Source of the DNA: a virus
Lineage: Duplodnaviria; Caudoviricetes
Length of the DNA stretch: 64,000 nt
IMG/VR virus record: IMGVR_UViG_3300013103_000006
Coordinates: 10,927 to 74,926 of that record
Direction: 5' to 3' (one strand)
Made by a program: the position numbers and the translations under genes. This document shows positions 44,110-60,070 of the stretch, in pieces (position 1 is the stretch's first letter; each line of letters opens with the position of its first letter). The notes beneath the pieces are model-generated. The model ran no database searches. It saw only the letters and a program-made list of their open reading frames with translations, and had not been told where the DNA came from.

Positions 44110-45084
44110 TTACTTTGCTAGTATTCTAACTCCTGCGTCGTCTCTGAGCAAACCAACACCGAATCTCATTTTGACTATTATGCCCTCAAGGTCGTGAATT
44201 GGATCATCATATCTCTCGACTGTTATGTCGTCCCTCATGGCTATGATTGCAGTGTTCTGTGAATCAAGTACAAGAGCATTGTAGTGACCAGAGGCATCGG
44301 TGCCATCCCAAGACTGAGTCACGTCATCAGATGTAGAGACTGATAGGGTGTATGGCTTTAGTCCTAGTAGTCTGGTTCCGATGCTACCTTCTCTTAGACC
44401 AGCCTCAGTACCAGCGTATGATACATAGACTAAATTGGAATCAGATAGCAGATATGCCTCAGCTGATGGATGTGTAATGAGTGTATCGGGTATCCAGTTC
44501 TTCTCTTTGACTCGTCCAATTGCTGTTGCGATATCAGTTACCGCAAGATGAGTTCCTGCTGGATCGACATCGGTGCATCCATCAAGCTCAGATAGAAGTT
44601 TGTCTAGTACTCTCTGGTTTAGAGTGTTCTCCATTACGTAACCAGCCCATTTTAGCTGATGCTCGACTACATTGAATAAGCCATCGTCAATCATCTCTTT
44701 GGTTATGAGACCTCTAAGGCCGTATTTCTCAACCTCAACGTCAACCTTTGAATAGGATGCTTCATCGATTGGGAATGCACCGCCCTCAGCAACTTTAGAA
44801 GCATATGCTCCAGAAGAACCAAGAACGAATCTTACTTTATATGAATCAGTCTTCTGGATTGGGAATACGTCTCTTACACAACGTGCTGGCTGTGCCCCCT
44901 CATAAATTTTCTTTATGACCTCTTCCTGTAAGAGAGTAGTTTCGTTGATATCCTCAGCCTGAAGTAGTGTCTTTACAGCCTTCTCACCGACAATCTTTTT
45001 AAATCTCTCGGAGTTTAGCATTCTCTTTCTCTCAGAGTTCCCAGCGAATGCATACTCCATTAGTTTTACGAACTTAGATTCCAT
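44110..45084 (-). CDS. Major capsid protein, HK97 fold
   Basis: 324 aa; VEKYGLRGLITKEMIDD, D.EGI.V.MRFG; follows scaffold and decoration genes. Confidence 0.9.
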   Translation of the reverse strand: MESKFVKLMEYAFAGNSERKRMLNSERFKKIVGEKAVKTLLQAEDINETTLLQEEVIKKIYEGAQPARCVRDVFPIQKTDSYKVRFVLGSSGAYASKVAEGGAFPIDEASYSKVDVEVEKYGLRGLITKEMIDDGLFNVVEHQLKWAGYVMENTLNQRVLDKLLSELDGCTDVDPAGTHLAVTDIATAIGRVKEKNWIPDTLITHPSAEAYLLSDSNLVYVSYAGTEAGLREGSIGTRLLGLKPYTLSVSTSDDVTQSWDGTDASGHYNALVLDSQNTAIIAMRDDITVERYDDPIHDLEGIIVKMRFGVGLLRDDAGVRILAK

Positions 45085-45143: not shown

Positions 45144-45521
45144 TCAAACTAGTAAAACTTTACCTGTACCTGGTAGAGAAGATGGAGCCTCTAATAGTAT
45201 AGCCATGACTCGCCCAGTTCCATTGGTATCAAGCCATCCTTTGTTATACTTGAGGGTAGTTCCGACTGTATCAGAGCCAGAGCCTGATATTCTAGCTTTT
45301 ACAATGTTGCCAGGACCCCATATCATTACCATGTCTCCGTCGGAAGCATCAGTAGCAGCAATACCAATACCGTTTGCTGAGGACGACGCTGGGACATAAA
45401 CCTTCATGGAATCTACTGGAACTACAGCCTGACCTGCAGATATAGAGCCAGAAGCAGTGAAGGAATACATCCCACCCTCTGGCTGAATCTCAATTGGCTG
45501 AGTTGGAGATGTAAATGCCAT
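45144..45521 (-). CDS. Capsid decoration/cement protein
   Basis: A.G.I.AGQAV...GIA..DA..G.......G pattern. Confidence 0.75.
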   Translation of the reverse strand: MAFTSPTQPIEIQPEGGMYSFTASGSISAGQAVVPVDSMKVYVPASSSANGIGIAATDASDGDMVMIWGPGNIVKARISGSGSDTVGTTLKYNKGWLDTNGTGRVMAILLEAPSSLPGTGKVLLV

Positions 45522-45570: not shown

Positions 45571-46269
45571 TTATTCAATGAGTTTCACTTCGCCTCTAGA
45601 AATAATAACAGTTGGGGAATCGTCACTGTCATCTTCAGGGGTTTCGTCAGATTTCTCTATGATAGTTTTCTCCTCTCCGCTAGCAGTTTCTAAAGCCTTT
45701 AATCTCTCATCAAGAGCTTTAAGTACATCGTCTTTCGCTTTAGTGGCAACACTGAGCTCCTCAATGGTCTTAGAGGCATTAGATAATTCAGATATCTTCT
45801 CCCAAAGAGCATCGATTGCATTAACCACCATTTCTGGCCACTCAGCTTTTGCTGGATATGGATATTTTGTCGGGTAGGGATAGCTAGTTGGCATTGGATA
45901 TGGATATGGGTAACCCGCTCTACGCACATTTGCTAGCATCTCAAGAACTGCATCCAGCTCCCCCTTTATCTTTTCATCCTTGACTTTTTTCTTAATCTTT
46001 TCTACCGCATTTGTTATCGCTCCTATCAAGCCCCCATTAGCCTTTTCTTCCTCCTCTGATTTCTTTTCTTCCTCCTCTTCTTCCTCCTCTTCCCCTGGCT
46101 CCTCGCATTTACTCTCTTCCTCTTTCTTCTCAACAAGAGTAGAAACTACCTTTTCAAGGGCTTCAAGTTTACGTTCGAGAGCTTCTAGTTTAAGTTCAAC
46201 GGAATTATCTTCGTTGCTCTCTTCGATGGTTTCTACCTCTGTTGGCTCAACATCCTCATATTCTGTCAT
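45571..46269 (-). CDS. Scaffolding protein
   Basis: Very acidic coiled coil with poly-E and YPYP repeats, between protease and capsid genes. Confidence 0.75.
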   Translation of the reverse strand: MTEYEDVEPTEVETIEESNEDNSVELKLEALERKLEALEKVVSTLVEKKEEESKCEEPGEEEEEEEEEKKSEEEEKANGGLIGAITNAVEKIKKKVKDEKIKGELDAVLEMLANVRRAGYPYPYPMPTSYPYPTKYPYPAKAEWPEMVVNAIDALWEKISELSNASKTIEELSVATKAKDDVLKALDERLKALETASGEEKTIIEKSDETPEDDSDDSPTVIISRGEVKLIE

Positions 46270-46275
46270 ATACCT

Positions 46276-47208
46276 CTATGCTATGTCTTCACATTTATTA
46301 CATTTAGACAAGATTATAAAACCTGATTTTGGATTAACAGGAAGTTTACAAACAGATACCTCAAATATATTTAACTTATCTATTACATTATGGCAAACTT
46401 TCCCATCGCAAACATATTTAGAAGATAACACTTCAGCTGCTATTGAAAAGCCATTATATTCACCTGATAAAATCTTTTCCCACACCTCATTAGCAATCTT
46501 CAAATCACTTCTTATTTCTGCAACTATGAACAATCCTTTATCGTCGACGTGAGTTGTGAATCCGTTATATTCAGGCAATATCTTTCCTATTTGGATATTC
46601 CTATGAACCACCATTAGGTTAGCATAAGATGGATCAGATAATAACGTTTGAATTCCCTCTTTAAGAGCCTCTAGAGTAATCAAATCATTCGATTTATCAG
46701 GAATAGCCACATTAGCATAACCTGCTATTATTCTCTTGCCTCCTTCTTTTTCAGCTTTACTTACTATCTTGAGATTGCCATACATTTTGAATGGATGGGA
46801 CATCTGAATTGTTTTAGGTGGGTTTATTCGTTCAACTTTAAGAGCATACAGAGGAATATAAGAGGTATAAGGTTTGGTGGATTTGTAGTGTAATTGAAGA
46901 TATAAAGGAGTATCGTCATATGGTATGCCAAATTCCCCAGCCATTTGTCTGAATAATCTAAAGTCAATCGCCTCCCTAATTTCTGGAGGTAAACTAGCTC
47001 CTTCAATGACTAAATCTATATCATTACCCTCTCCATGAACGACAGTAGAACCAACTAGAGATATAAACGGTTTCATGATATAAAAGTCTTTAAATTTAGA
47101 TAATATGTCATCAAGCTTAAATCTCTTGCCTGTCAATCTACCAGATGGTGGGACTTGAGCAAGTTCTCCTTTTCTAGTGAGCTTAATTATTTCAGGTAAG
47201 TCCATCAT
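46276..47208 (-). CDS. Pol-beta-type nucleotidyltransferase fused to HK97-type prohead protease
   Basis: N-half LVGSTV...NDIDLVI; C-half IIAGYA, VVH, GFSIA, EVSVC..PVNP. Confidence 0.8.
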   Translation of the reverse strand: MMDLPEIIKLTRKGELAQVPPSGRLTGKRFKLDDILSKFKDFYIMKPFISLVGSTVVHGEGNDIDLVIEGASLPPEIREAIDFRLFRQMAGEFGIPYDDTPLYLQLHYKSTKPYTSYIPLYALKVERINPPKTIQMSHPFKMYGNLKIVSKAEKEGGKRIIAGYANVAIPDKSNDLITLEALKEGIQTLLSDPSYANLMVVHRNIQIGKILPEYNGFTTHVDDKGLFIVAEIRSDLKIANEVWEKILSGEYNGFSIAAEVLSSKYVCDGKVCHNVIDKLNIFEVSVCKLPVNPKSGFIILSKCNKCEDIA

Positions 47209-47444
47209 GCTATCATCAGGAAATACTTTACTAAGAGGAATACAAGACCAAACAAGACAGCTCCAACAAACCAGAATAACAGTTTGAATTTACCATCAAG
47301 ATAAGCCAGTTCCCTTGATAATTCAGTTGTGATTGATTCTAGTCGCTCTATACGCTTTAATAGCTCGTCATCATTTTTATTTAGACTCTTCAGTGTGGAG
47401 ATAATCTCCCCAAGCATTAGTCTCAGGTCTTCCATAAGTATCAA
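47205..47444 (-). CDS. Coiled coil plus C-terminal TM protein
   Basis: Heptads followed by LLFWFVGAVLFGLVFLL. Confidence 0.65.
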   Translation of the reverse strand: MILMEDLRLMLGEIISTLKSLNKNDDELLKRIERLESITTELSRELAYLDGKFKLLFWFVGAVLFGLVFLLVKYFLMIA

Positions 47445-47527
47445 CGACCAAATATCTTCTCAAATATTTCCTCTATTAGTTTAATCTGTCTATCAACGCC
47501 ATTCATAAAACTGAAGGTATATTAACA

Positions 47528-49741
47528 TTAACATTTCAGAGATTGCTTGAATTTCTTAATAGATTCTGCTCTATAAGCTTCTCTACCAAATTTCTCAAGC
47601 TTCCCAGCAGGAATTGGCCAATAGTGTCCTGTATCAGCATGCATAATAGAATCCATTGGATAAGGGTCATCTATTGCTTTCCAAACCCACCATCTTTTAT
47701 CCTTTCCAGCCTTGAATGCTCTGATTATGAACCTGCCATTAAACAGCTCTTTGTTTTTATTAGGAAGTGATTCTGATGGATAAGAGAAGTATTCATGGTT
47801 GTCCTCACGCTGAACTCCAGCTTTAACAGAGCCAAGCCATATAGCACACATGTATGCCCATTTATATGGTGTAGAGTTTTTAACTAAATGATTTAAGACT
47901 ACAAAATTATGATCATCGGCAACAGCGATATCGTAGATATGAATTGAACCTCCATGTTCTTTCTCTGTTCTTAGAACAGGAATATAGTAGTATCTATCAT
48001 CCTCATCTACTAATCTAGGCTTCTTCTCTCGTTTAAGTGGCCAGCTTATATTATATATTTTATATCGAGAGTCCTTCATATAGCTTTTTATAGACGGCAA
48101 CTCGCCTAATGTAAGTAGAAGCAAGAAGATTTGACCAGCGAGTCTTCTAGATTCTGTAGCATACTGAATTCTCCTATGATTTACATAGCCATCACTTTGG
48201 ATGAGACCATCTAGGAGCTTACATTTCAAAGCATCAGGAAGATAGTAAATCCATTGAGGAAGAATCTTATGCTTTCTACCTCCGTAGTGAACATAACAAT
48301 TATTACAAAGCCAATGAGCAAGACCACGATCTATAAATCTTAGCGATATATAATTTCCGTTCGGATTAACTATCCTTGTAACATGAGAAATTCCGAATAT
48401 TGATTTCACCAAAAATTCAAGGCAATCTGCTTCATCTTCGTTAGCACAGTCAAGAGATATCTGACCTTTGTCGTGGTTTAATACCGACCCGTCGCCAGCA
48501 AAGAAACCTAAGAAGAACATGAAATCTTCCTCGACAGCTATTTTCTTCTCGTATCCTGGCTCGATAGTGAGTATAATCTCCCTTGGGTATTCTTTCTCTT
48601 CTAGGTGAGGCTTAGGCAATAACAATTTATCGTTTTGGGTTATTGTTTCTGATTCTTTCAAACCATCTTTAGTATAAATATTGTGATGATAATATATAGT
48701 TTTGAAGCCAAACATAGGTGTTAGAGAAAATCGGTTATGAACAATTCCTCTATCCCAGATTTTTAGGATTGGTCGGAATCTACCGCATCCAGTATAAACT
48801 AAATCTCCTTCTTTGAGCTCATCGACAAATTTATAGCCTTCAGGAGTCAACACTAAATCATGAGCAGCGACACATCCAACCTCTCCAGGAGGAATCATAT
48901 AAGACTTATCAAATAAGACATATTGCTTGATTAATTTAGCATCTTCTCTTGTAAGTATTGGTTCTTTCTTCTCAGCTTTAACCACACGTTCTGGCTCTTC
49001 TCCGCTGGGCTTGACTATAGCGAGCCCTTTACTCACATTACCTGTTTTCTCGTCTGTTCTTCCAATAATAGTATCAAAGTAATCTTTGACGTGATCCTGA
49101 GTAATCACCCATTGAACGAATGCGTTTTTAAATTTAAGCCTCCAGTCCAAATGTATGCTATGACCATCTACTAAATCCTCAAATGATATCTTGCCTAATT
49201 TATATTTTTTGACATCATCTGGTTCTAGTCCTCTTATATGCATCTGAGCCCAAGCTCTATCTGCTTCATCATAGTTGACATAACATATCTTTGGAAGAGG
49301 TTTCATCTCTTGTCTGAGTTCCTTATAGATATCTTCTGGAATTCTGTGTTTCTCAACCCAAGAGCAAACATCTTCTTTTGTGATAGCTTTCTTTAGATGT
49401 CGTTTCCATGTATTTGGGAATTCAGTAGAATGATATAACTCTGTTTCATCATAGATAGTAAGTGGCTGGAGATTATTAATTGAATTCTGAAGTTTTACGG
49501 TGCCATCATCATGCTCAACCAAATATAACTCTTTACTCAGTGCATTTGTGAGCGTCTTTGCTTTTGTTTCTAGTTCGTTGATTCGCTCTTTATAGGAAAG
49601 AATCTCATTCTTAAATTCTTCTTCGGTTTTCTTTAGCTCATTCTCTTTAGACTTAAGAGCTGACTCTAATTCTTTGATTTTATTTTCAAGTTCAGCTTTA
49701 CGCTTATTATATTCAGTAAGTAATTCAGTCTTTAAATCCAT
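47528..49741 (-). CDS. Coiled coil plus LigD-type 3'-phosphoesterase domain, interrupted by an intein
   Basis: QMH.RG...HLDWRL...QW and IWLG...LFNGRFIIR match the LigD PE layout (QxH...HYDxRL...SW...IWDxG...LxG). Confidence 0.7.
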   Translation of the reverse strand: MDLKTELLTEYNKRKAELENKIKELESALKSKENELKKTEEEFKNEILSYKERINELETKAKTLTNALSKELYLVEHDDGTVKLQNSINNLQPLTIYDETELYHSTEFPNTWKRHLKKAITKEDVCSWVEKHRIPEDIYKELRQEMKPLPKICYVNYDEADRAWAQMHIRGLEPDDVKKYKLGKISFEDLVDGHSIHLDWRLKFKNAFVQWVITQDHVKDYFDTIIGRTDEKTGNVSKGLAIVKPSGEEPERVVKAEKKEPILTREDAKLIKQYVLFDKSYMIPPGEVGCVAAHDLVLTPEGYKFVDELKEGDLVYTGCGRFRPILKIWDRGIVHNRFSLTPMFGFKTIYYHHNIYTKDGLKESETITQNDKLLLPKPHLEEKEYPREIILTIEPGYEKKIAVEEDFMFFLGFFAGDGSVLNHDKGQISLDCANEDEADCLEFLVKSIFGISHVTRIVNPNGNYISLRFIDRGLAHWLCNNCYVHYGGRKHKILPQWIYYLPDALKCKLLDGLIQSDGYVNHRRIQYATESRRLAGQIFLLLLTLGELPSIKSYMKDSRYKIYNISWPLKREKKPRLVDEDDRYYYIPVLRTEKEHGGSIHIYDIAVADDHNFVVLNHLVKNSTPYKWAYMCAIWLGSVKAGVQREDNHEYFSYPSESLPNKNKELFNGRFIIRAFKAGKDKRWWVWKAIDDPYPMDSIMHADTGHYWPIPAGKLEKFGREAYRAESIKKFKQSLKC
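47876..48874 (-). mobile_element. Intein (333 aa) with LAGLIDADG endonuclease
   Basis: EVG|CVAAHD...IYDIAV..DHNF...VKN|STP; LGFFAGDG and LIQSDG. Confidence 0.92.
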
Positions 49742-52700
49742 TTGTTAATTCCTCAAGCTTCTCATCAGGCAGCATCTTAACACACAGCTTAATTACATCA
49801 TCAAGTTTATCATTAATAGTTGAATCATTAGATGCTAATTTTATACGCTCTAAATCTGTTATGATAGCTGACAATGACCTCTCTATATGCTTTATGTCGT
49901 CGTGAATATTATTCTCATTAATTGAATTCTTCAAGTCAGTGACAGCAAGCCTAATCATTTCTTTCAGATTATTAACTTCACTATTAATATGCTTCTTTCT
50001 TTCGAATGTTGATTCTTCAATCAATGAGCTAAGTTTCTCATCTAATTCAGACATCTGCTTTTGTAACTTCTTAATCCACTGAAGGAATGTGGATGTTCCG
50101 ACCCCTCCACCACCACCAGTTTGCCAAGAGCCAGAGCCGTGTTTAGTCGTTAGGTAATTGTCTATCTCCTCTGGAGTGGTACCAGACCAACTTCCACTTC
50201 CGTGAGTAGAAGATAATTGAGCGTCTATATCTTGAGCTGGCTGGCCCGAAAGAGAAGTAAGAGTTCGGGAAGAATAATTCCAAATATCAGAAGGCGTGCT
50301 ACCTGTCCAAGCACCTGAACCATGACTAAGTGATAGCTTATCATCAATATCTTGAGCTGGTTGACCAGCAAGAGATGTGAGCGTTCTGTTTGAATAACTC
50401 CAAACATCAGCAGGAGAAGTGCCTTCCCAACTGCCTGAACCGTGAGTAGAGGAAAGTTTATCATCAATGTCCTGTGCTGGTTGGCCTGATAGTGAGGTTA
50501 ATGTTCTAGTTGCATAAGACCAGACATCGGCCGGGCTTGTGCCTTCCCAGCCACCGTTTCCATGTGTTCCGCTTAACTGTGTGTCCACCTGGCTTGGAAT
50601 GTTTGCAACCTCCGAGTGTGTTGAATACCAGTCGTCTTCATTTAAAACATTCACAATAACAGAGTCCTTGGTGACATAGTTTTCAACATAACACTCAATT
50701 ATGTAAAGCCCAGATTCTGTAGGCGTCCAGTCATAGTAATAATATCTTGTGCTACCGATTTTCGTCATGTCCGCTCCCGTCACTACGGATGTCCCATCCT
50801 GCTTGTATATGTTTATCCTAACCGTGTGCGGATTCTCCGCCTCCATCGAGTATATTATCCTCTCCGTTGCGTTCACTTTGATATGCTTGTATCTCGGCGT
50901 CACTATTCCCGTGTGCTCAGTCAGTAGCCTTCCTATTGTCGAAGTCTCGGACAGGGCCGTGATTGCCTGACTCCAGATTTCGAGTGAAGTTATGACTGGG
51001 AACACAGCAGGTGGGTTCGCGGGTTGCCCATTTATCCAAACCTCGTGACTCCTGTAGTCTACGCTCTCTGGCCACGAGTAACTGTCATCATCGATGTAGA
51101 CATAGGGATTCGTCCCGTCCGATTTCACCTTGATGTGAATCGTAGCGTTCCCGTCCGATGTCGGAGTCCCTACCACTATGAAGGGTATCCATTGGTCGGC
51201 GTAGGAACTTCCAGGATGCGTCCACTTGGCGGTAGGTTCTGAAGTGTAGTCGATTCCCAAACCCGAAAGGTAAATTTCAGGAGCGGAGACATCTGTTCCA
51301 GCGAAATAGTTTGAACTCACATAAATGTATCCCAGATAATACACGGGCTTGTTGGTCTTGCAACCAGTCAGAGTAATCGTGTAGGAATCGAAGTCCTCGC
51401 CAGAGACCTGTGGCTCCAATCGTAAGGCATAGTTATACCCTCCTGCGGAACGGTAAGTGGCGTCGTCCGCTCCGGTATAGTTTCCAGTCCTATGAACTGC
51501 TCCATACTTGTAAATGATCCAGTCGTTATTTTCAATTCCATTTCTCTTTGTAAATCTTATCCTTGTTGCATCCAACCAGTCTTCTCTATAAACAGTATAC
51601 ACTTCAGTGGTTATGTTTGTATACACTATATTGTGATACCAGTCTGTGCAACCATCGTCTATGTCAATCTGGAAAAGAGTAAAAGCGTTTTCAATCGTGA
51701 TATCATGGATGTAATTGTTCTGCGAAATTATATCACCAGCATAGTAGAAGCAACCTTGAAGTGTCTGAGTGGTTGCTGAACTGTTGCTGTCATAGTAAAT
51801 GTTTTTCATCTCTACATTGTAAATCTCGTTGTCACTGCTTCCAGAAAGAAAAATACCATACCTTGTATTGAAGATTGTCCCGTTGTACGCTATGTTTTTG
51901 GATGAAAGATAGAAGTAAAGCCCAAACTGTCCCTGTATCCAGAAGTCAGAGAGTGTGTTCTCGTTTGACTGGGAAAACTGAACTGTATAGTACTCGACAA
52001 TTCCAACAACTTCAGTGATTGTAAATCCTTTGCTTTTGTAAAGAATGTAACTGCCTTCTCCCCAACTCCAGGAGGAAGTTTTACTGTCACAAATTGCAAC
52101 TTTTTCCAGATGTCCGTTTCTTCTACTTCTTATATAAAAATACTTACAATTATCCACCAATACTCCCTTCAAAATGTCTGTATGTGGGTATTCTGAAATG
52201 GGGATTTTTGGATTAAACCCTTCAAAGTAGGCAGGATAACGCATATAAGAATATCTAACCCAATACGCTCTCCACCATCTCATGTAATAAATGTATGTAT
52301 CTGCACGAGAATCTGTAGAAGAAATTTCATCACCATGAATTAAAACATTTCTCCGTACCAACAGAACCCTACCACCAGCATCCCTCGGGTAAGATAAATT
52401 AGATGTAAGAGTGATCGTCGTTTCATCATTTCCCGCATCGTAAGACAAAGCAGAAATTTCATAATATTTATGATCCCGGGAATAATCATTGTAATGTCTC
52501 GTCGCAGAATACTTTGCTCCTCCAATTCTTATCCTGTCTCCAACTTTCCACTCAGCTGTAACATCTCCTTCCACAACAATTTGATTGCTACCAGCAGACG
52601 CATCGTACTTCAAAACAGCATACCATTTCTCAATGGGAGATCCGTAATGCTCAATTTTCATCCAAGAGGAACGGTAAGCATATATCCCCGCTCTTCTGCT

Positions 52701-53576
52701 CGTCCCTTCGCAATTGAAAAACCAGTTGACAGTTTTATCAGCTGGAATTGGATTTTCTTCACTATCGCCAATCTGCCAAGCAACTCTGTCCCCACCAGAT
52801 ACATACATTCTCCCTTTTATTTCAACTGTAATATCAGAAGTTATGCTTGAGGGAACATACAATCTCCCTATTGAAGTTATCCACAAACTCCCTTTGTTGT
52901 TGTAACTATCTAGCCTATCTTTTGAAGGTGAAGTAGGTATGGTCACGTAACCAACAGTCCAGTCCTGATCTATCACCAGCTCGTCAGTAATAACAAAAAT
53001 GTCTGATGATGTCGGAGTACCAGTTGTGTCTGAGTAAATTATTCTGAAAGCATAGTTACTGACATCTGATTGCCATGAACTCCAAGATGTATTTTTGCTG
53101 AGCAACAAGTAAAGACTAGAACCATTCAATCGATAAATTTTAAACCTGTATTGATAAGAAGTATTCAAAGGATAGGAAGTGTCAAATCTAACATCAATTA
53201 TGTATTTTCCATATTGCTTTACAGCACCGGCGTTGACATCGTTCGGGAAGTTAATTGTTTTGCTTCTGACAGTGTTCCAAGTAGAACCTCCATCTGTTGA
53301 TTCCTGCAATTCTATCACAATATCATCGTTATAATCCCTTGAACTTGATCCGGCATGCACTGCCAGAATAACCCCTTTAAGATTGACAGCATTGGCAGGA
53401 GTGAATTTGATATAAAGAGGTTTAGATGATGACCTTATTTCCACATACCCTTTATTACTCCCTTTCTGATTGAATGGCCAGAGATAATTTACATCCCACT
53501 CAATATTGTCCCCTCTATACCAAGTCATTGAAGAAAGATCGCCGCTATTTGCCTGCACCCATAGCGTCATATTCAT
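49725..53576 (-). CDS. Large virion protein: beta-helix, 40-aa repeats, C-terminal coiled coil
   Basis: 1283 aa, aromatic/Ser/Thr/Asn-rich with beta-helix-like turns. Confidence 0.7.
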   Translation of the reverse strand: MNMTLWVQANSGDLSSMTWYRGDNIEWDVNYLWPFNQKGSNKGYVEIRSSSKPLYIKFTPANAVNLKGVILAVHAGSSSRDYNDDIVIELQESTDGGSTWNTVRSKTINFPNDVNAGAVKQYGKYIIDVRFDTSYPLNTSYQYRFKIYRLNGSSLYLLLSKNTSWSSWQSDVSNYAFRIIYSDTTGTPTSSDIFVITDELVIDQDWTVGYVTIPTSPSKDRLDSYNNKGSLWITSIGRLYVPSSITSDITVEIKGRMYVSGGDRVAWQIGDSEENPIPADKTVNWFFNCEGTSRRAGIYAYRSSWMKIEHYGSPIEKWYAVLKYDASAGSNQIVVEGDVTAEWKVGDRIRIGGAKYSATRHYNDYSRDHKYYEISALSYDAGNDETTITLTSNLSYPRDAGGRVLLVRRNVLIHGDEISSTDSRADTYIYYMRWWRAYWVRYSYMRYPAYFEGFNPKIPISEYPHTDILKGVLVDNCKYFYIRSRRNGHLEKVAICDSKTSSWSWGEGSYILYKSKGFTITEVVGIVEYYTVQFSQSNENTLSDFWIQGQFGLYFYLSSKNIAYNGTIFNTRYGIFLSGSSDNEIYNVEMKNIYYDSNSSATTQTLQGCFYYAGDIISQNNYIHDITIENAFTLFQIDIDDGCTDWYHNIVYTNITTEVYTVYREDWLDATRIRFTKRNGIENNDWIIYKYGAVHRTGNYTGADDATYRSAGGYNYALRLEPQVSGEDFDSYTITLTGCKTNKPVYYLGYIYVSSNYFAGTDVSAPEIYLSGLGIDYTSEPTAKWTHPGSSYADQWIPFIVVGTPTSDGNATIHIKVKSDGTNPYVYIDDDSYSWPESVDYRSHEVWINGQPANPPAVFPVITSLEIWSQAITALSETSTIGRLLTEHTGIVTPRYKHIKVNATERIIYSMEAENPHTVRINIYKQDGTSVVTGADMTKIGSTRYYYYDWTPTESGLYIIECYVENYVTKDSVIVNVLNEDDWYSTHSEVANIPSQVDTQLSGTHGNGGWEGTSPADVWSYATRTLTSLSGQPAQDIDDKLSSTHGSGSWEGTSPADVWSYSNRTLTSLAGQPAQDIDDKLSLSHGSGAWTGSTPSDIWNYSSRTLTSLSGQPAQDIDAQLSSTHGSGSWSGTTPEEIDNYLTTKHGSGSWQTGGGGGVGTSTFLQWIKKLQKQMSELDEKLSSLIEESTFERKKHINSEVNNLKEMIRLAVTDLKNSINENNIHDDIKHIERSLSAIITDLERIKLASNDSTINDKLDDVIKLCVKMLPDEKLEELTNGFKD
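50115..50590 (-). repeat. Three full plus one partial ~120-bp coding tandem repeats
   Basis: HGSGSWEGTSPADVWSY..RTLTSL.GQPAQDID.KLS unit. Confidence 0.9.
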
Positions 53577-53739
53577 CGAGCTCCTGATACAAATCTTCTA
53601 GGGTTCTTAACATCTCGTCACGTTCACGCTCTAATTCCAGTATCTGCTGGCTTATCATCTCAATATTTCTTTCAGTTTCCTGAATAGTCATAAGTAAATT
53701 ATCTAATTCTGATGATTCTGGCATAATTACCATCTTCAT
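53545..53739 (-). CDS. Small acidic coiled-coil protein
   Basis: Overlaps both neighbours. Confidence 0.55.
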   Translation of the reverse strand: MKMVIMPESSELDNLLMTIQETERNIEMISQQILELERERDEMLRTLEDLYQELDEYDAMGAGK

Positions 53740-56700
53740 CTTTCATAATAGAAACATCTGATTCCTTAATATGTCTCAGCTCCTCAAGTGGAATACGCTG
53801 GGGCTCAAATGATGATAATTTATCAATGACATTGATTCCATCAGTTACATGCTTCTCAGGAATAGGCTCTAACACTCTACCAATATAGAATGAATACCTA
53901 GGATACTCTGGGAATTTGTCATTATCAAACTTCAAGACTTCTTCAGCAGCTATTCTAAGAATATCGCCGATTTTAACAGGAACTTTCTCTTTAGCATTGT
54001 CAGATTTACCCATCTTAGTTACAAATATAACCCCTTTATCGTCTAAATAATCCAGACAATCCTTTCCATTAGCAATAACTTTCCCATTCTTGAATGCATA
54101 TACTTTACCATACCAATCCTTAGTTGTCATGGAAAGATATGCTTTAGCATAATCTCTTGGGGTATCGTATCCTAGATAGTAATTATAAACATTTTTCGTG
54201 CCCTTAACTTTCTTTTTATCGATTACCCTTAAATCAATTTCGGAATAAAATTTGCACTTAGCCCAAGAGTGGTTCTGAGGATACTCATAAATGCCATCTA
54301 AACATTTAATCATCACGCCCTCTGCACAAAATTTCGGCCTTCCACTCTTAGCATGTCTTAGATATTCAGCTATTTTCGGAATAATGGAGGCTTGAGAGCC
54401 ATTGATTATAAAGCCATCGGCTTTAGCTGGAAATTTAGTTGATATTCTCTCTATCCAGATGTGTTTAGTTTCTTTAAGTCGAGATAGATATTCAAGCCTT
54501 TCATGAAGGGGTTGGTCTCGTATATCAAGGCCATCATAGAATAATACATCGAACACTGCTATAATAGCATAATCTTCCAGTTCCTTGCCTGACATATTAG
54601 AGTTAAGTATAGAGTTAGCATCGGTTCTATGAAGCATCTCTTTCTTATTGGGATGTAATGCTAAGAATTCAGCATCGAGTATAGTGTTATCTGGGAATGA
54701 TTTCTCCATTTCTTTTATTATAGCCGGGATTCTTTTTGAGACGTTAGGACTTTTCTCTTTGAGATTTTCAGGGTCGACAAAAGCAAATCCTTGCCCATTT
54801 ATTTTTCCTACAGTCATTCTAAGCCCATCCCATTTACAATCAACTAAAAGCTTCTTTTCATCCCAACCAATTGCTTTAATATTGTCCTCAATTTCATTAA
54901 GATACATTCTATAATAAGGCTTAGCTTTAGAATAGTATCCTGGTTTAAGAGATGTTTTTTCTATAGCCTCAATTTCGAAGGTATCATGATTAAGCTTAAT
55001 AAGAACATCTTTCAGTTCGTATGCCGACTGAATTACACTGGTTTCATCAACAAAGCAATTGTGAATAGCCTCTAGAGAAGCAACACCATTCACAGAATTT
55101 GTTATGTCTTTATGAATTAAACCAGAATAATCAAACCATAAAGGATTAAGCTCATAGGAAACATCACAGATTTGGCTGTGTCTTAGAGGACATTGCTTAG
55201 TAAGAATAGATATATATGGTAATCTTTTCTCAAAAATAGAAAGATTATACTTAATTGCATCGCCAGAATATATTTGCTTGAGGGTATATTTAGCTATAGA
55301 TTTCTTGATTATAGATTTACGTTTCTTATCCCATTCTCTAGCTTCATTGATGTTTTTTGGTGGTTTAGATTTCATATATGGTTTGGATTTCTCATAACAT
55401 TTCCAGAATGATGATTTCTTAGCTTTAGCTGCACTCTTACCATAGTATTCCTCATATAGTTTTGGTTTGGATGGTGGGATAATCGGAAAGTAAACAGAGC
55501 GAAGAGCATCAACAATTTTAGCAAAATACCTAAATACATCAGTCAAAGTCCAGTCGCCCCATTCTTTACCTGCAGACAATCTGGGGTAACCACTATTTCC
55601 AAGATAACGTAAATCAGCTATTAATTCCTTCCAATGCTCTTTAGGATTTTTTATATCATAATCTACTCCTTCACTACGAAACTCATCGAGATGAAGTTTC
55701 TGAGTGATATAATATTGTTCAATATCTTTGACAAATGTCTGAATGCCTACAGGTAATTTAAGTCGCTTTTTCTCTCTAAATGGATGATATTCCTTTACTC
55801 TATAGGCGTATATAGGCAGTTGCCAGTTCCATTTCTCAAATTCTTGCTTTGATACCAGATGTTCTGGAGCAAATCTGAGGAATTTCTCGTCAGTATCAAT
55901 CGTAAATGGCTCAGACAGAATTATATTACCATAGGCGTATTCATTATCGCATAATACAAATTCTTTATTGGTGATATCAAATTTTCTTTGCTTTAAGACT
56001 ATAGATTTAGCACCTATATCAATAAGGCCAGCATGTGGCTTAACAAGATATAGACCATCCGTCTTCATAATCGATAGCTCTCTGAGATTGAACTCTAGTG
56101 TATCGCCATCCTTAAGGAGCCGACCATTGAATTTAGCTAACTCTGATTCAACTTTCCTCTTATGTCTAAGCAAAGAGCTTCTGTAATTGGTCAAATATAT
56201 GGCTTTTGGTTTTAATTCATCAGCTATCTCCATTAGTTCTTTAAAGGTAGCTTTATGATCTTTGGATTTCGGCTTTTCGTATTCACCAACTCCAATAATC
56301 CAGATTGTTCCTTGCATTAATTCCTTTTCATCTTTCCCTAATTTCTGAAACTCCGGGATTATAACTATAGCTTTCTTTCCGGAACCAAGTTTAAAACCGG
56401 ATGCAGGTTTTCCTACCATTTCTGGAATTGACATAAATTTAATCGGAAGGCCACTAAGTTTAAGCGGTCTTACTACAGAACGAATATTTTTCTTAAAATC
56501 TGGCAGATACAATCTCAAATCTGAGGCGATTGATTCTAGAGCATATACTGGAGTCTTTGGGAATTTTTTGAGATATCGCTCAAGATATAGCCAGTGATCC
56601 TCATCTGGTGATGATACTAATATAAAATCAACTGGCTCATCGAATTTAACAGCGGGGTCAATCCAAATTCGTTTATTTTTTCTTTCGATTAATAGAGAAA

Positions 56701-56761
56701 AATGTTTCTTACCTTTAAGGCCGTAAGAAGCCCAATTACCCAGTGCTGTTATCTTTAGCAT
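53699..56761 (-). CDS. Multidomain protein: MBL-fold, ASCH/PUA-like, helical domain, ATP-dependent ligase with OB fold
   Basis: Ligase motifs CKWDGLR, LDAEF, FDVL, EGVMIK, WAKCK. N-terminal MBL-like (IWIDP, VSSPDEDH, IYLTN, DGDTL); ASCH-like GLYLVKPHAGLI..G.K. Confidence 0.85.
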   Translation of the reverse strand: MLKITALGNWASYGLKGKKHFSLLIERKNKRIWIDPAVKFDEPVDFILVSSPDEDHWLYLERYLKKFPKTPVYALESIASDLRLYLPDFKKNIRSVVRPLKLSGLPIKFMSIPEMVGKPASGFKLGSGKKAIVIIPEFQKLGKDEKELMQGTIWIIGVGEYEKPKSKDHKATFKELMEIADELKPKAIYLTNYRSSLLRHKRKVESELAKFNGRLLKDGDTLEFNLRELSIMKTDGLYLVKPHAGLIDIGAKSIVLKQRKFDITNKEFVLCDNEYAYGNIILSEPFTIDTDEKFLRFAPEHLVSKQEFEKWNWQLPIYAYRVKEYHPFREKKRLKLPVGIQTFVKDIEQYYITQKLHLDEFRSEGVDYDIKNPKEHWKELIADLRYLGNSGYPRLSAGKEWGDWTLTDVFRYFAKIVDALRSVYFPIIPPSKPKLYEEYYGKSAAKAKKSSFWKCYEKSKPYMKSKPPKNINEAREWDKKRKSIIKKSIAKYTLKQIYSGDAIKYNLSIFEKRLPYISILTKQCPLRHSQICDVSYELNPLWFDYSGLIHKDITNSVNGVASLEAIHNCFVDETSVIQSAYELKDVLIKLNHDTFEIEAIEKTSLKPGYYSKAKPYYRMYLNEIEDNIKAIGWDEKKLLVDCKWDGLRMTVGKINGQGFAFVDPENLKEKSPNVSKRIPAIIKEMEKSFPDNTILDAEFLALHPNKKEMLHRTDANSILNSNMSGKELEDYAIIAVFDVLFYDGLDIRDQPLHERLEYLSRLKETKHIWIERISTKFPAKADGFIINGSQASIIPKIAEYLRHAKSGRPKFCAEGVMIKCLDGIYEYPQNHSWAKCKFYSEIDLRVIDKKKVKGTKNVYNYYLGYDTPRDYAKAYLSMTTKDWYGKVYAFKNGKVIANGKDCLDYLDDKGVIFVTKMGKSDNAKEKVPVKIGDILRIAAEEVLKFDNDKFPEYPRYSFYIGRVLEPIPEKHVTDGINVIDKLSSFEPQRIPLEELRHIKESDVSIMKDEDGNYARIIRIR

Positions 56762-57098
56762 ATCTATAATCTGGCAGACTCTTAGGATTTACATTAACAT
56801 GAGTGATTTCACAATGAAAGTGTTCTTCATAGTGGTCTTTTGGCTTTCTAAGATAAACTCCCTGACCGAATAGTCTTCTAGCGTGATATAACATATAGCC
56901 CCATTCTGTTTTCGATAATGATGGAATATGTTCAGTAGCTACAGCAATTGGTTTCCCATTAAATGGAGAATCAATGATGATTAAAGTTCGAGAATCAAGA
57001 ATATCAAGAGGTGGGTAGTATAGCTTAGTGTTGAATTTTTTATTTTTAATCATTTCACAGAATGGGCAACCTTCCACGAATATTTTTTCATCCCTCAT
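56736..57098 (-). CDS. HIT-like protein (degenerate)
   Basis: N-terminal CPFC, central EH..L, C-terminal HFHCE. Confidence 0.4.
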   Translation of the reverse strand: MRDEKIFVEGCPFCEMIKNKKFNTKLYYPPLDILDSRTLIIIDSPFNGKPIAVATEHIPSLSKTEWGYMLYHARRLFGQGVYLRKPKDHYEEHFHCEITHVNVNPKSLPDYRYAKDNSTG

Positions 57099-57580
57099 CG
57101 AATTTTAGACTCCTGACAAGCTGGATTAGTCACGACAGCACAACCGAAAAATTCAGCTTCTGTCACTCTTATGGCTTTCTCTTTGTAATCCCATTCGTCA
57201 GTCGTTATAACTTCGGCAGATAGATGATTTATTAAGCCGTTATCGATTAAAGAAATTGTATCTCTTGCTACAAAAGTATAAGGAAAGATATACAAATCAG
57301 CTTTGACAGCATTATCCTCCCAGCGAGGGTTTTCAACATAACCAATTCGATGAACTACTGAAGTGGAGTGATCGATGTTCAGATATCGAGTAGACCAGTT
57401 AGAGGCGTATTTGGATAATATATCTTCTGGCCATATTACCCAATCATTTGTTGAGCTATCTGCATATTTGCCGGGAGTTAAAATAACTGCTCCTCTATAA
57501 ATTCGAGCGTTTGTCGATTTTGATATCTCTCGAGAAGCATACTTAAATTCAATGTTGAAAAAACGCTTACGCTTCGTCAT
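57095..57580 (-). CDS. Second prohead-protease-like protein (assemblin fold)
   Basis: LNIDH, HLSAE, AVVTNPA; immediately after portal. Confidence 0.7.
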   Translation of the reverse strand: MTKRKRFFNIEFKYASREISKSTNARIYRGAVILTPGKYADSSTNDWVIWPEDILSKYASNWSTRYLNIDHSTSVVHRIGYVENPRWEDNAVKADLYIFPYTFVARDTISLIDNGLINHLSAEVITTDEWDYKEKAIRVTEAEFFGCAVVTNPACQESKIR

Positions 57581-59831
57581 TTAGCTCCTCCTCATCGATT
57601 GGCTCAAACCCAAACATGCTTCGTATTTCATTAATAGTAAATGGGAATGGCTTATCTCTAAAGCCTCTTAGTAAATTACCTAGCCACTTAGCCTTCATTG
57701 CTTCATCCTCATCAGTTACCGAACGCCAGACGATATTCAATTTGGATGAATCAAGTCCTTCACCTTCAAGAAGAGGCTTGAATATCTCGTTGAGAAGGAA
57801 AGTCTTTAGTCTGAGCTGAAATGCTTTTATCATTCTCTCATATAGAAGAGCCTTAACGTAAGCTACAGCTTCTGTTGAATTACCAACAACTGATACTTTG
57901 CCATTGTGTCTGGTTAATATTAAGCCATTCGGAACTGTTACGCAATAAACCCATCCTGAATAATCTTCAAGAGCTAAAGTCGAAGGGTGATGTGAAGTAG
58001 TTTTAATACAAACCTCAGGTGTGAGATTATGCTCATTTCTCGTAACGACGTATTGTAAATGTCTCGTTGTGCCGACTCGTTCGCCATTAATTATGACTGG
58101 TTGATTTATTCTGTCTCTGGTATAGACTGTTGATCCATATCCCATCTTTAAAAGAATCTCTTGAACATCATCGGCGAGATGTTTTGATGATGTAAAAAAG
58201 TTTTTCCCACTACCATCACCAAACATTAAGGCATCATAAAGAACTTTAAGACGTTTGGGTGGTAAATTCTTTATCCAGTCTGGGATATACCTCTCGTATG
58301 ATTTACCAAATTGATGGAGATATACAGCTAGTTGCTTATCGAATATTCTAATAGAATCGTCATATCTCGAGTATTTGAATCCTAAGCGTTTAACTACTGA
58401 TTCTATTATGTCTAATCCATTCTGAGAACATTGTTTAATTTTTACTTCATATCCTTCCTTCGAATCAGCAACAGTACTACCTTCAGATAGGAAGTAACCA
58501 AAGAATTCCAACCAATCATCAATATCAAATCGTTTCTCAGAGTATTCCCCAACTTTTATCTTCGAATTATGCCATCTGTCGCCTACATATTTCTCTACTG
58601 CAGGAAGAACGAACTCTTCGAGGTCTTGACCCTCCCAGTTAAAACCACCAACCATAAGCTCGAATCGTGATGGTAATGAATCAGCAGTTACCACCTCGAA
58701 ATCCTTGTGATGTTGTCGTCGAATATACATCCTATGATCGCCAGTGCATTTTATATCGTATGTTTGACCTTTAAAATGATATATTGGTTCATTAATATAA
58801 TATCTCCAATTCTTTAGATTTTTCTGGAATTCAAGTTCATTCTTATCTGCATTATAGGTTAAAATTTCATCGCCCTCCGAAACTTCTGTTATCGGAACAA
58901 AGCCCTTACCTTTAACGAAAATTTCCATATCTGGTGTTAGGGGGCCTTTACCCAAACCTAATGCCTCTTCTGGGCACATCAAACCAGTTACTAGCTGAGA
59001 CTGGAAGTAATTGAAGTATTCCTCAACTCCCTTAATGCCTTTTTCATCTATTGTGTCTATTTTAACTGTCCATGGCACTATAATTTCTGTCTTTTCAGTT
59101 ATGTTCTTTAGTTCGGATTTAATTTTATCAATAACTTTCTCTGGAATGGGAGCATCAATTTTTTCGTTACCAACAGTAATAATGTATCTTGGCATGCCAT
59201 GACGAATAATAGCTGAAGCAATTGCAGTATCAGTTCGAACTTTACGTTTAAGAGTATCAATAGAAGGAGTAATTAGAGAAACGCCATAGGGAGTTGAAGG
59301 ATCAGGGAAGAATCTAAAATGAGCAATATATTTAGGTTCAATGATATCGCCTTTGCGTCCGTTAATAGTCTGTCTATACCCCGTGATTCTTCCGTACTTA
59401 TCCCAGATAATTTCCATAGTAATTGGATTAATCACCTTAAGATTAACCAGCTTTTTACCTGACTTGTTGAATATTTTCTCTATAAATGCATCTCCGAATA
59501 CAAGGCAAAATGTGACTGCATTTAATAGAATCTCATCAAGATTAGTTCTGTTCCGAAATTCCTCGACAACCATCTTGATTCTGTCATCATCTGTTAGAAT
59601 ATCATATCCGGCCATAACTGTATTCCACGCTGTATAATTAATAGAAGCAAATACAGTACCCTCACCTATATAATATTTCCAGAGATTCTCAAGTTGAGCA
59701 GAGTTTCTTTCTGTAGATGATGAGAATAAAGAAGCTAACTCACCATCATTAGAAGCTACTATAGTTCTTGGATTACCCTCATCATCGAGAAAATACGAAT
59801 TAGGTTTAAACAAACGTCTGAATAAACTCAT
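57567..59831 (-). CDS. Portal protein interrupted by an intein
   Basis: FGDAFIE, FRF...YGVS, LGLG.G|STEA...ERMI..FQ; follows terminase. Confidence 0.9.
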   Translation of the reverse strand: MSLFRRLFKPNSYFLDDEGNPRTIVASNDGELASLFSSSTERNSAQLENLWKYYIGEGTVFASINYTAWNTVMAGYDILTDDDRIKMVVEEFRNRTNLDEILLNAVTFCLVFGDAFIEKIFNKSGKKLVNLKVINPITMEIIWDKYGRITGYRQTINGRKGDIIEPKYIAHFRFFPDPSTPYGVSLITPSIDTLKRKVRTDTAIASAIIRHGMPRYIITVGNEKIDAPIPEKVIDKIKSELKNITEKTEIIVPWTVKIDTIDEKGIKGVEEYFNYFQSQLVTGLMCPEEALGLGKGPLTPDMEIFVKGKGFVPITEVSEGDEILTYNADKNELEFQKNLKNWRYYINEPIYHFKGQTYDIKCTGDHRMYIRRQHHKDFEVVTADSLPSRFELMVGGFNWEGQDLEEFVLPAVEKYVGDRWHNSKIKVGEYSEKRFDIDDWLEFFGYFLSEGSTVADSKEGYEVKIKQCSQNGLDIIESVVKRLGFKYSRYDDSIRIFDKQLAVYLHQFGKSYERYIPDWIKNLPPKRLKVLYDALMFGDGSGKNFFTSSKHLADDVQEILLKMGYGSTVYTRDRINQPVIINGERVGTTRHLQYVVTRNEHNLTPEVCIKTTSHHPSTLALEDYSGWVYCVTVPNGLILTRHNGKVSVVGNSTEAVAYVKALLYERMIKAFQLRLKTFLLNEIFKPLLEGEGLDSSKLNIVWRSVTDEDEAMKAKWLGNLLRGFRDKPFPFTINEIRSMFGFEPIDEEELNDEA
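57879..58943 (-). mobile_element. Intein (355 aa) with LAGLIDADG endonuclease and N-terminal Pro
   Basis: GKG|PLTPDME...CTGDH...VYCVTVPNG...VVGN|STE; FGYFLSEG and LMFGDG. Confidence 0.9.
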
Positions 59832-60070
59832 TCTATTCTCATTATAATATCAATTAACGATACATGACGGTCGTTAAATTCTTCTGAAGAAAGTTTAACC
59901 TCAACTTTTGCTTCAGGATTATATCGTCTAACAATCTCCTCGACATCCACAGCTTTCTTAATATGTCTGCCTCTTGCGGATATATGAATTTCGTTGCTCT
60001 TTTGAAGAGCCGTAAGACAGGCAGTAACGTACACTCCGATATTCTTATCGCCTATAAATATTCGCTCCAT
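59828..60070 (-). CDS. albA: Alba (Sso10b-family) nucleic-acid-binding protein
   Basis: IFIG.K....YV.A.L, I.ARGR.I.KAVDV.EI, VS.I.I. Confidence 0.85.
   Translation of the reverse strand: MERIFIGDKNIGVYVTACLTALQKSNEIHISARGRHIKKAVDVEEIVRRYNPEAKVEVKLSSEEFNDRHVSLIDIIMRIE

Follow-up and report, generated by a model that had tools for sequence, protein, structure and literature searches.

Ligase, phosphoesterase and nucleotidyltransferase-like domains encoded in the head operon of a tailed virus of uncultured status from archaea, a candidate capsid-loaded DNA repair kit

Several described systems bring together the enzymes that heal and seal the ends of nucleic acids. Bacterial DNA ligase D (LigD) combines ligase (LIG), phosphoesterase (PE) and polymerase (POL) domains and acts with Ku, and PE also occurs as a stand-alone protein in archaea (structures 3N9B, 3P43 and 3P4H; PMC3082917). 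The PE of LigD strips 3'-ribonucleotides and 3'-phosphates (PMC3082917). The virion of African swine fever virus (ASFV) packages the ligase NP419L, the polymerase Pol X O174L and the apurinic/apyrimidinic (AP) endonuclease E296R, as shown by proteomics (PMC12172490). Polyvalent proteins are large multidomain proteins with shuffled enzymatic domains beside portal and head genes, and they are proposed to travel with the DNA (PMC5512222). Here we describe a cassette of genes for a DNA ligase, a PE-fold protein and a nucleotidyltransferase-like (NTase-like) domain that an archaeal tailed virus, so far uncultured, has in its head operon. The cassette lies at positions 46,276 to 57,098, on the minus strand, of a 64,000-nucleotide stretch of viral DNA (positions 10,927 to 74,926 of IMG/VR record IMGVR_UViG_3300013103_000006). 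This stretch, which is called the window below, covers 64 of the approximately 77 kb of its contig.

The viral cassette resembles both LigD and the ASFV set in composition. As in LigD, a ligase is coupled or fused to a PE-fold 3'-end healing domain and to a nucleotide-adding domain, and the viral PE has the barrel fold and the Q-x-H...H-x-D-x-R motif in common with the PE of LigD and the archaeal PE. Unlike in LigD, no Ku was found with the module, and a domain of about 140 amino acids with a G[GS]...DxD motif stands in place of the archaeo-eukaryotic primase (AEP) domain. The viral genes also differ in lying in a head operon, tied to the prohead protease, and the viral PE has a 28-amino-acid insert, further inserts and an N-terminal extension, and is invisible to Pfam and PDB profiles. 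The ASFV set likewise comprises an enzyme for cleaning ends, a minimal member of the Pol-beta family and an ATP-dependent ligase, which are borne by the particle and thought to repair viral DNA before replication (PMC12172490). However, ASFV belongs to the nucleocytoplasmic viruses of eukaryotes and its gene context is not homologous, its end-cleaning enzyme is an AP endonuclease and not a PE, and packaging of the archaeal viral module is a prediction. The principal genes of the cassette are as follows.

56736-57098, minus strand: HIT-like open reading frame (ORF), 120 amino acids
53699-56761, minus strand: ligase protein, 1020 amino acids, with metallo-beta-lactamase (MBL), ASCH, CORE and ligase domains
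47528-49741, minus strand: PE protein, 737 amino acids including an intein
46276-47208, minus strand: fusion of an NTase-like domain and the prohead protease, 310 amino acids

A first-pass annotation of this DNA had named these four ORFs, and all four are present where it put them on the minus strand. Its inventory of the interval was incomplete in other respects, as it overlooked the intein in the PE gene, a beta-helix gene, a second S78-like protein (S78b) and the CORE domain.

The recurrence of the cassette in related viruses indicates that its arrangement is not due to chance. The neighboring genes of the head operon in the window, all on the minus strand, are these.

60081-61433: large terminase (TerL)
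59828-60070: Alba
57567-59831: portal with a LAGLIDADG intein (phrog_9232 E 8e-23, PF06074, PF14528, Intein_splicing), the upstream boundary of the cassette
57095-57580: S78b, 161 amino acids
47205-47444: conserved ORF of 79 amino acids (o79), between the PE and protease genes
45571-46269: scaffold
45144-45521: ORF of 125 amino acids (o125)
44110-45084: major capsid protein (MCP)

The order TerL, Alba, portal, S78b, HIT, ligase, PE, o79, NTase/protease (with or without fused scaffold), o125 and MCP is found in 11 related IMG/VR contigs, in whole or in the part that the contig covers. The NTase-protease is continuous with the scaffold in all nine of these relatives whose contig extends that far, and the ligase protein is fused to PE in three of the 11. 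In addition, more than 40 IMG/VR contigs have an equivalent domain set just after the portal. Chance is rejected because the gene order recurs in the 11 contigs and the domain set in dozens more.

The same domains are joined to each other in many different ways. Profiles of each domain of the window were run over 151 proteins and 57 loci, and more than 30 architectures were found among the homologues. They include MBL-ASCH-CORE-LIG-PE (P0013, P0022, P0072), LIG-PE-NT-S78 (P0126, P0129), PE-S78 (P0123), NT-MBL-LIG-PE (P0034, P0035) and NT-LIG-PE-CORE-ASCH-S78_2 (P0042, and P0044 with no ASCH detected), where NT is the NTase-like domain and S78 the protease. NT-S78-scaffold is found in at least ten loci, and in another arrangement ASCH-MBL-NT-LIG-CORE is followed directly by the protease-scaffold gene. 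Wherever the flanks were readable, the module is downstream of the portal. This includes four loci whose head genes the profiles had not recognized and whose portal and capsid families are unrelated to those of the window according to PHROG scans; the module is in the head module there as well. In L012, L017 and L018 its direct neighbors are the portal on one side and the protease or MCP on the other, while in L030 a MuF-like head-morphogenesis gene stands between the portal and the module. Since the domain set recurs after the portal and its domains are fused in many orders, the cassette genes can securely be predicted to form one functional module, and one that is tied to procapsid assembly. 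The module is conserved in tailed viruses of archaea and in some of bacteria. The first-pass annotation had proposed that these enzymes act together and belong to the head. The proteins that join ligase, PE, NTase and protease, PE and protease, or NTase, protease and scaffold agree with this, and fused versions, for which a survey had been suggested, proved to be numerous.

The best explanation appears to be a capsid-loaded kit that mends nicks and blocked ends of the viral genome at or after entry. We give this reading a probability of about 0.5, and it is favored because of the module, the fusions and the functional precedent of ASFV. The enzymes would be loaded into the procapsid and remain with the packaged genome. 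Being the N-terminal part of the prohead protease, the NTase-like domain would be carried in with it; the ligase, PE and other parts would enter by association, which is proposed because relatives fuse these parts covalently to the protease or scaffold. The kit would then act on viral DNA at or after entry, or possibly already in the head. PE, made functional by splicing of its intein, would clear 3'-phosphates or 3'-blocking groups at nicks and breaks, the NTase-like domain would add one or more nucleotides, and the ligase would seal. The HIT-like protein may remove 5'-AMP left from aborted ligation. Packaging, DNA as the substrate, the order of the reactions and the biological purpose are what we infer. 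Such a Ku-less kit would resemble LigD, and still more the eukaryotic single-strand-break repair set, and it would be less like non-homologous end joining (NHEJ).

Several observations weigh against a capsid-loaded kit. Packaging is a prediction from the genes of uncultured viruses. In the window a stop codon parts the NTase-protease from the scaffold, and the ligase and PE proteins are free, that is, unfused to the protease or scaffold. Metal ligands are missing from the MBL domain, and the identities of the NTase-like and HIT-like proteins are weak. For PE, the canonical phosphate-binding His and Tyr could not be mapped, the exteins have no Pfam match at E<=10 (including LigD_N), and profiles of 6 and 37 sequences found no PE chain among their PDB matches. 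Finally, the ligase of the cassette is the only one found, and PolB, primase and RNase H are encoded by the virus itself.

Because of this last point the function of the ligase may simply be in replication or in the maturation of DNA inside the cell. The enzymes would then work late in the infected cell, in lagging-strand maturation or in the repair of concatemers for packaging by the terminase, and the protease and scaffold fusions would only position them at the assembly site. A profile of this ligase family, which a divergent ligase could escape, found no other ligase in the window, and a single ligase was found in each of four related records of 50-89 kb. The window encodes PolB, an AEP primase, an RNase H-like protein, ERCC4 and a Rad51-like protein, and it also encodes Alba and ribonucleotide reductase. 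The free ligase and PE proteins and the TAG between protease and scaffold fit this explanation too. However, domains fused to the protease or scaffold would end up inside the procapsid, because that is where protease and scaffold act. The module is in the head operon and not in the replication module, across unrelated portal and capsid lineages; the AEP primase of the window does sit in the replication module, apart from the ligase cassette. Other payloads borne by CORE-ASCH in relatives (Dam, NUDIX, NADAR) also look like conflict or entry functions and not like replication. A role confined to the late infected cell is the main rival reading, with a rather low probability.

The PE protein of the window is interrupted by an intein, and its exteins are predicted to form a LigD-type PE fold. 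Its parts, all on the minus strand, are listed below.

49534-49741: N-terminal coiled coil, residues 1 to about 70, seen in the translation and matched only by coiled-coil-type noise in Pfam and NCBIfam
48875-49533: N-extein with a helical/hairpin region and the first half of the barrel (Q-x-H and H-x-D-x-R)
47876-48874: class-1 intein with a LAGLIDADG endonuclease, 333 amino acids, from Cys290 to Asn622 with Ser at +1 (PF14528 E 4e-13, Hint_2, intein_Cterm)
47531-47875: C-extein with the second half of the barrel and a C-terminal helix

The extein amounts to 404 amino acids. Six intein-less homologues are collinear across the insertion site (G-D-V-G-A-T), and the C-extein aligns with the C-terminal parts of homologues at 69-78% identity. 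The penultimate residue of the intein is Lys instead of His. Inteins usually lodge in conserved sites of important proteins, and the site used here is a nearly invariant G-x-V-G-[AS]-T motif. The N-terminal coiled coil is present in only some of the homologues. Many relatives have inteins in PE, at three different sites at least, and L037 has two of them in a single gene; the ligase and CORE are intein targets as well.

HMMER found 88 relatives of the PE protein among 1.8 billion representatives, and 37 of these were used for AlphaFold2. The intein-less homologue that was modeled, P0008, is approximately 62% (N-extein) and 72% (C-extein) identical to the window protein, and its model has a pLDDT of 91.9. 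Foldseek placed 3P43, 3N9B and 3P4H on top (probability 0.99-1.00, target-normalized TM 0.46-0.70), with 2LJ6 (probability 0.85) and 5DMP (0.82) further down. In a VIA-align comparison with 48,161 chains, 3P4H scored Z 9.2 (root-mean-square deviation 2.5 A, 112 of 118 residues) and 3N9B Z 7.5, and the next, unrelated chain scored 3.5. The earlier call of a LigD-type PE is borne out by these fold comparisons. Since the fold search finds LigD PE structures and the sequence profiles find none, the viral PE is, going by the model, a branch of the PE superfamily that has diverged deeply, is extended at its N-terminus and contains several inserts. A tblastn search of phages with a PE homologue gave no match.

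The catalytic residues are conserved in most of the family. Q95, H97, H126, D128 and R130 are found in 34-35 of 37 sequences and also in the window protein. In the archaeal enzymes CkoPE and MbaPE the Mn/phosphate site consists of Gln, two His, Asp and Arg (CkoPE Gln7, His9, His15, Asp17 and Arg19), where the two His and the Asp are ligands of Mn and the Arg binds phosphate, and CkoPE has a second phosphate-binding His and Tyr in His51 and Tyr55 (PMC3082917). The viral Q-x-H...H-x-D-x-R motif appears to correspond to the first of these sites, with the 28-amino-acid insert lying between the two metal His. In the 37 sequences R241, D243, E246 and F248 are near-invariant and H245, E246 and Y247 are conserved. 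A D-H-x-x-D-Y motif after strand 3 was considered for the His/Tyr pair and rejected, as its His is not conserved.

The ligase protein contains four domains, of which the ligase is the most clearly identified. The domains, on the minus strand, are the following.

56075-56761: degenerate MBL-fold domain, residues 1-229 (PF12706 E 4.9e-6; 26.7 bits, slightly below the cut-off of 27)
55712-56068: ASCH/PUA-like domain, residues 232-350 (profile match to TTHA0113)
55262-55711: CORE domain, residues 351-500 (motif ADLRYLGNS...WGDW...SxW..Y...KPP...EW)
53702-54901: ATP-dependent ligase, adenylation domain and C-terminal region, residues 621-1020 (PF01068)

The ligase matches PF01068 with E 1.2e-16 (61 bits, cut-off 26), TIGR00574 with E 1e-15 and TIGR02779, and its PDB matches are Lig1 and archaeal ligases. 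Motifs I, III, IIIa, IV and V are present as KWDG (643), LDAEF (695), FDVLFYDG (737), EGVMIK (814) and WAKCK (833), and the K-x-D-G, E, D, E-G and K residues are invariant in 21 diverse sequences. The earlier ligase call is therefore secure in family and in motifs. About 185 residues follow motif V; the phrog_114 alignment reaches residue 925, and no separate OB-domain family was matched. Homologues of the ligase protein come from Thermoplasmata, Thermofilaceae, Heimdallarchaeota and Methanosuratincola bins and from Methanophagales virus PBV299.

The combination of ligase, PE and nucleotide-adding domain invites comparison with NHEJ. The first-pass annotation had suggested a virion-delivered NHEJ-like system that rejoins restriction or CRISPR cuts or circularizes the incoming genome. 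The LigD-like trio, the position in the head module and the protease fusions are all consistent with this. The description as NHEJ-like is not supported, since no Ku was found and the module has no AEP polymerase domain; what relatives have joined to the ligase is the G[GS]...DxD domain and not an AEP polymerase. The earlier remark that no Ku was seen stands: there is none among the best 25 of the 42 Pfam families matched by 52 other ORFs of the window, and a search of four related viral records for Ku (PF02735) gave nothing at E<=1. In bacterial NHEJ, the joining of blunt or incompatible double-strand breaks is inefficient without an end-bridging factor, and this also counts against rejoining of cut DNA. 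With regard to circularization, one close relative has direct terminal repeats instead of evidence for cohesive ends. The companion payloads in relatives are typical of anti-defense polyvalent proteins (PMC5512222), which speaks for a function against host cuts. Overall the module is probably not NHEJ in the strict sense because Ku was not found, and an NHEJ-like system of this kind is improbable.

In the capsid-loaded reading the NTase-like domain has the most direct connection to the head, as it is the N-terminal part of the prohead protease. The 310-amino-acid protein divides as follows on the minus strand.

46789-47208: NTase-like domain, residues 1-140, with hG[GS]x8-10DxD and then an invariant Arg
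46279-46788: HK97-type prohead serine protease, residues 141-310 (PF04586 E 5e-9)

The protease matches PF04586 with 37 bits (cut-off 21) and phrog_80 with E 1e-11, and its His and Ser columns are conserved; TIGR01543 matches with E 5.6e-9 and 36.3 bits, under its 59-bit cut-off. The gene is placed ahead of the scaffold and MCP. The fusion to a protease that had been proposed earlier is thus found in a single ORF. The identity of the first domain is less clear. Among 24 sequences of 17-46% identity, G53, D63, D65 and R87 do not vary, which agrees with the hG[GS]x9-13DhD signature of the Pol-beta-type superfamily, and no conserved third acidic column was seen in this alignment. Its top meaningful PDB profile match is the MNT antitoxin 5yep, which is weak (E 0.12) and aligned on GS...DIDI. 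The domain has no Pfam match, and PF01909 (NTP_transf_2) has none in four related records. It is likely a minimal Pol-beta-type nucleotidyltransferase, judging by the motif; of the earlier Pol-beta call, the invariant G...DxD motif stands, but the best match is weak and PF01909 is silent.

The protease and scaffold are closely linked in both the window and its relatives. Protease and scaffold arrangements of tailed phages include the nested C/Nu3 genes of lambda and the protease-scaffold fusion gpO of P2. In the window the scaffold is in frame with the NTase-protease gene, and only a TAG, a GAGGT ribosome-binding site and an ATG lie between them (46260-46285). In relatives NTase, protease and scaffold are one ORF of 529-609 amino acids with a conserved Met where the window has the scaffold ATG. 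Because this Met is kept at the ATG position, a nested internal start of the scaffold, like that of C/Nu3, is suggested. As in lambda and P2, protease and scaffold are in one frame, and the relatives have an internal Met at the scaffold start. The viral genes differ in the extra N-terminal NTase-like domain, and in the window by the TAG between protease and scaffold. Recoding of this TAG was considered and rejected: TAG ends 11 of 61 genes, and GAGGT and ATG follow it.

S78b is a second candidate protease. It matches PF04586 with E 5e-5 and 23.9 bits (cut-off 21), and the main protease has its His and Ser in the same alignment columns. It is found directly after the portal as a stand-alone gene in all group-A loci, and it is conserved in more than 20 loci.

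The MBL domain of the window has almost certainly lost its hydrolase activity. It can be assigned to the MBL fold by its profile match to PF12706, as the first-pass annotation had done, and its homologues in relatives reach 57 bits and match the cyclic phosphodiesterase PhnP (3g1p, E 5.7e-4). In an alignment of 60 homologous domains two subfamilies can be told apart. The first retains HxHxDH together with the later His, Asp and His, while that of the window reads SSPDEDH / GVGEY / LTN, so that HxHxDH has become SSPDEDH and the His of motif 3, the Asp of motif 4 and the His of motif 5 are gone. The domain is judged dead as a metallo-hydrolase because these ligands are replaced, and the earlier caveat about lost His ligands was correct. 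The ligand-less subfamily has gained conserved motifs of its own, P-E-[FL], G-V-G-[ED]-Y and L-T-N-x-R, which suggests a new non-hydrolytic role instead of decay.

The ASCH and CORE domains appear to form a unit that carries various payloads. A profile of 27 sequences matches TTHA0113 (2dp9, 1wk2), which we take to be an ASCH-type protein, with E 1.8e-5 over the whole domain (positions 5-119 of 129). The earlier ASCH call is supported in this way, and the Pfam ASCH family itself has no match on the window domain. CORE is the best-conserved segment of the family, with 44-74% identity across 30 diverse viral loci. A single-sequence search found none of these loci, and an alignment query was needed. 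CORE has no PDB profile match and no ESM Atlas match. In relatives the CORE-ASCH unit bears other payloads, namely Dam methylase, NUDIX, S-adenosylmethionine (SAM) methyltransferase, and NADAR with a DprA-like domain.

These domains bear on the question of whether RNA is the substrate. End-healing and sealing systems for RNA include T4 Pnkp/Rnl1 and the bacterial Pnkp-Hen1, and an RNA repair or end-modification kit was an alternative of the first-pass annotation. It could serve, for example, to restore tRNAs or mRNAs after cleavage by HEPN, PIN or type III CRISPR ribonucleases of the host. The viral module has the end-healing and sealing logic in common with these systems. ASCH is PUA-like and a proposed RNA binder, and the canonical MBL of relatives resembles PhnP, so that this part of the earlier alternative stands. 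Some relatives have a SAM methyltransferase inserted between NTase and ligase, or a NUDIX domain; the former is a further likeness to the RNA systems. LigD PE removes 3'-ribonucleotides as well as 3'-phosphates (PMC3082917). However, the ligase is in the DNA-ligase/LigD branch (PF01068, TIGR00574, TIGR02779) and not of the Rnl or RtcB type, the phosphoesterase family differs too, no kinase domain for 5'-OH ends was seen in the module, and the window MBL is without metal ligands. Several relatives have Dam-type (D12-class) DNA adenine methylases fused to CORE-ASCH, which point to DNA. RNA repair is disfavored because of the ligase family and the DNA methylase fusions, the NADAR and DprA-like fusions being likewise counted for DNA, and we consider it to have little probability.

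The loss of active-site residues could also mean that the proteins are mainly structural, as capsid-internal or assembly parts in which the enzyme folds are relics (pseudoenzymes). The MBL has lost nearly all metal ligands, the HIT triad is incomplete, and coiled coils flank several of the proteins. However, the ligase motifs and the metal motif of PE are invariant or nearly so down to about 20-30% identity, the G...DxD of the NTase-like domain is invariant, and canonical MBL sites persist in other subfamilies. A mainly structural role is very improbable.

The HIT-like ORF is weakly supported as a HIT-fold protein. It shares its last 26 nucleotides with the start of the ligase gene, and it has no Pfam match. 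With a profile of eight orthologues, the top three PDB matches are HIT proteins (5uvm, 3l7x, 1y23), with weak E values of 0.03-0.19 over the CxxC...EH segment. In the Atlas the TM is 0.60-0.61 to clusters that are 100% PF01230, with a pLDDT of only 0.65 for the model. C11, C14, H57 and H93 are invariant. The HIT triad (H-phi-H-phi-H-phi-phi) is reduced to H-F-H-C-E in the window and H-[FW]-H-A-Y in orthologues, so that two of three His are kept. The first-pass annotation had itself marked this call as weak; the top PDB matches agree with it, but their E values are high and the triad is incomplete.

The module can also be compared with polyvalent proteins, from which it differs in its anchor and its payload. 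Both consist of large proteins with shuffled enzymatic domains next to portal and head genes, and both include DNA methylase and NAD/ADP-ribose-related payloads (PMC5512222). The shared viral anchor is the previously undescribed CORE-ASCH and not MuF or portal, and the payload is ligase, PE and NTase, often fused to the protease. Pfam and PHROG scans found no MuF domain in the window module; one relative, L030, has a separate MuF-like gene beside the module, and protease fusions take its place in others. Iyer, Burroughs, Anand, de Souza and Aravind (2017) found polyvalent proteins to be scarce in archaea, named RNA ligases only as not associated, and did not describe ligase or PE payloads (PMC5512222).

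A wider proposal can be put forward tentatively. Archaeal and some bacterial tailed viruses may have a capsid-borne, Ku-independent analogue of LigD that is loaded via protease and scaffold, with a Pol-beta-type NTase replacing AEP and a CORE-ASCH chassis for swappable payloads. It would mend breaks gathered between infections or on entry, and DNA repair inside virions would be a principle that ASFV, poxviruses and archaeal Caudoviricetes have in common. We give this less credence than the kit proposed for the virus of the window.

A literature search found no description of a ligase/PE/NTase set in a head module, and the ANME-1 virome paper that deposited PBV299 makes no mention of the PBV299 ligase. 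New in the window are the split architecture, the PE intein, the dead MBL subfamily, the overlapping HIT-fold companion, the CORE chassis, the second protease and the beta-helix insertion. If the enzymes are truly loaded in the head, prokaryotic viruses would have a widespread means, as yet undescribed, of delivering their own DNA repair along with the genome. This would bear on virion longevity in slow-growing sediment communities, on counter-defense, and on the origin of virion-packaged repair in large eukaryotic viruses. The analysis also yields a new and deeply divergent branch of LigD phosphoesterases, and a ligase family with members derived from thermophiles that may have biotechnological uses. 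CORE may be a new capsid-targeting or nucleic-acid-binding module, and the protease fusions would be a natural system for loading cargo into capsids.

Two further genes lie between those for the ligase and PE proteins, on the minus strand.

53545-53739: coiled-coil ORF of 64 amino acids from the ORF list, status uncertain, overlapping both of its neighbors
49725-53576: parallel beta-helix protein, 1283 amino acids

The beta-helix gene is, judging by its composition and distribution, a recent insertion specific to this virus. This is concluded because its GC content of 0.45 differs from the approximately 0.36 of the window, and the gene is absent from all 11 syntenic relatives. The protein matches TIGR03804 and PF05048, has three to four tandem repeats of 40 amino acids (120 nucleotides) and ends in a coiled coil. 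Metagenomes hold homologues, and a tblastn search of phages gave no match. It could be a head fiber, a depolymerase or an internal cargo. The 64-amino-acid ORF has no homologue detected in the 11 relatives and gives only coiled-coil noise in Pfam. The small ORFs o79 and o125 have fixed positions in the head operon of relatives, with homologues of o79 in group-A loci, and neither could be assigned to a family.

A megablast comparison of the 18-kb region with GenBank phages gave no match. Among sequencing runs that contain the stretch no RNA data set was listed, and the one DNA run, from a marine metagenome, is probably the sample from which it came. Three genes in the 64-kb window bear inteins, at 11448-13766 (plus strand), at 57567-59831 (minus strand, the portal) and in the PE gene (intein 47876-48874, minus strand). 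The intein-less portals of relatives (412-424 amino acids) align to the window portal as two collinear blocks. The close relative L001 (89,379 bases) is classed as having direct terminal repeats and as 24% complete by CheckV, and its single ATP-dependent ligase is that of the head module.

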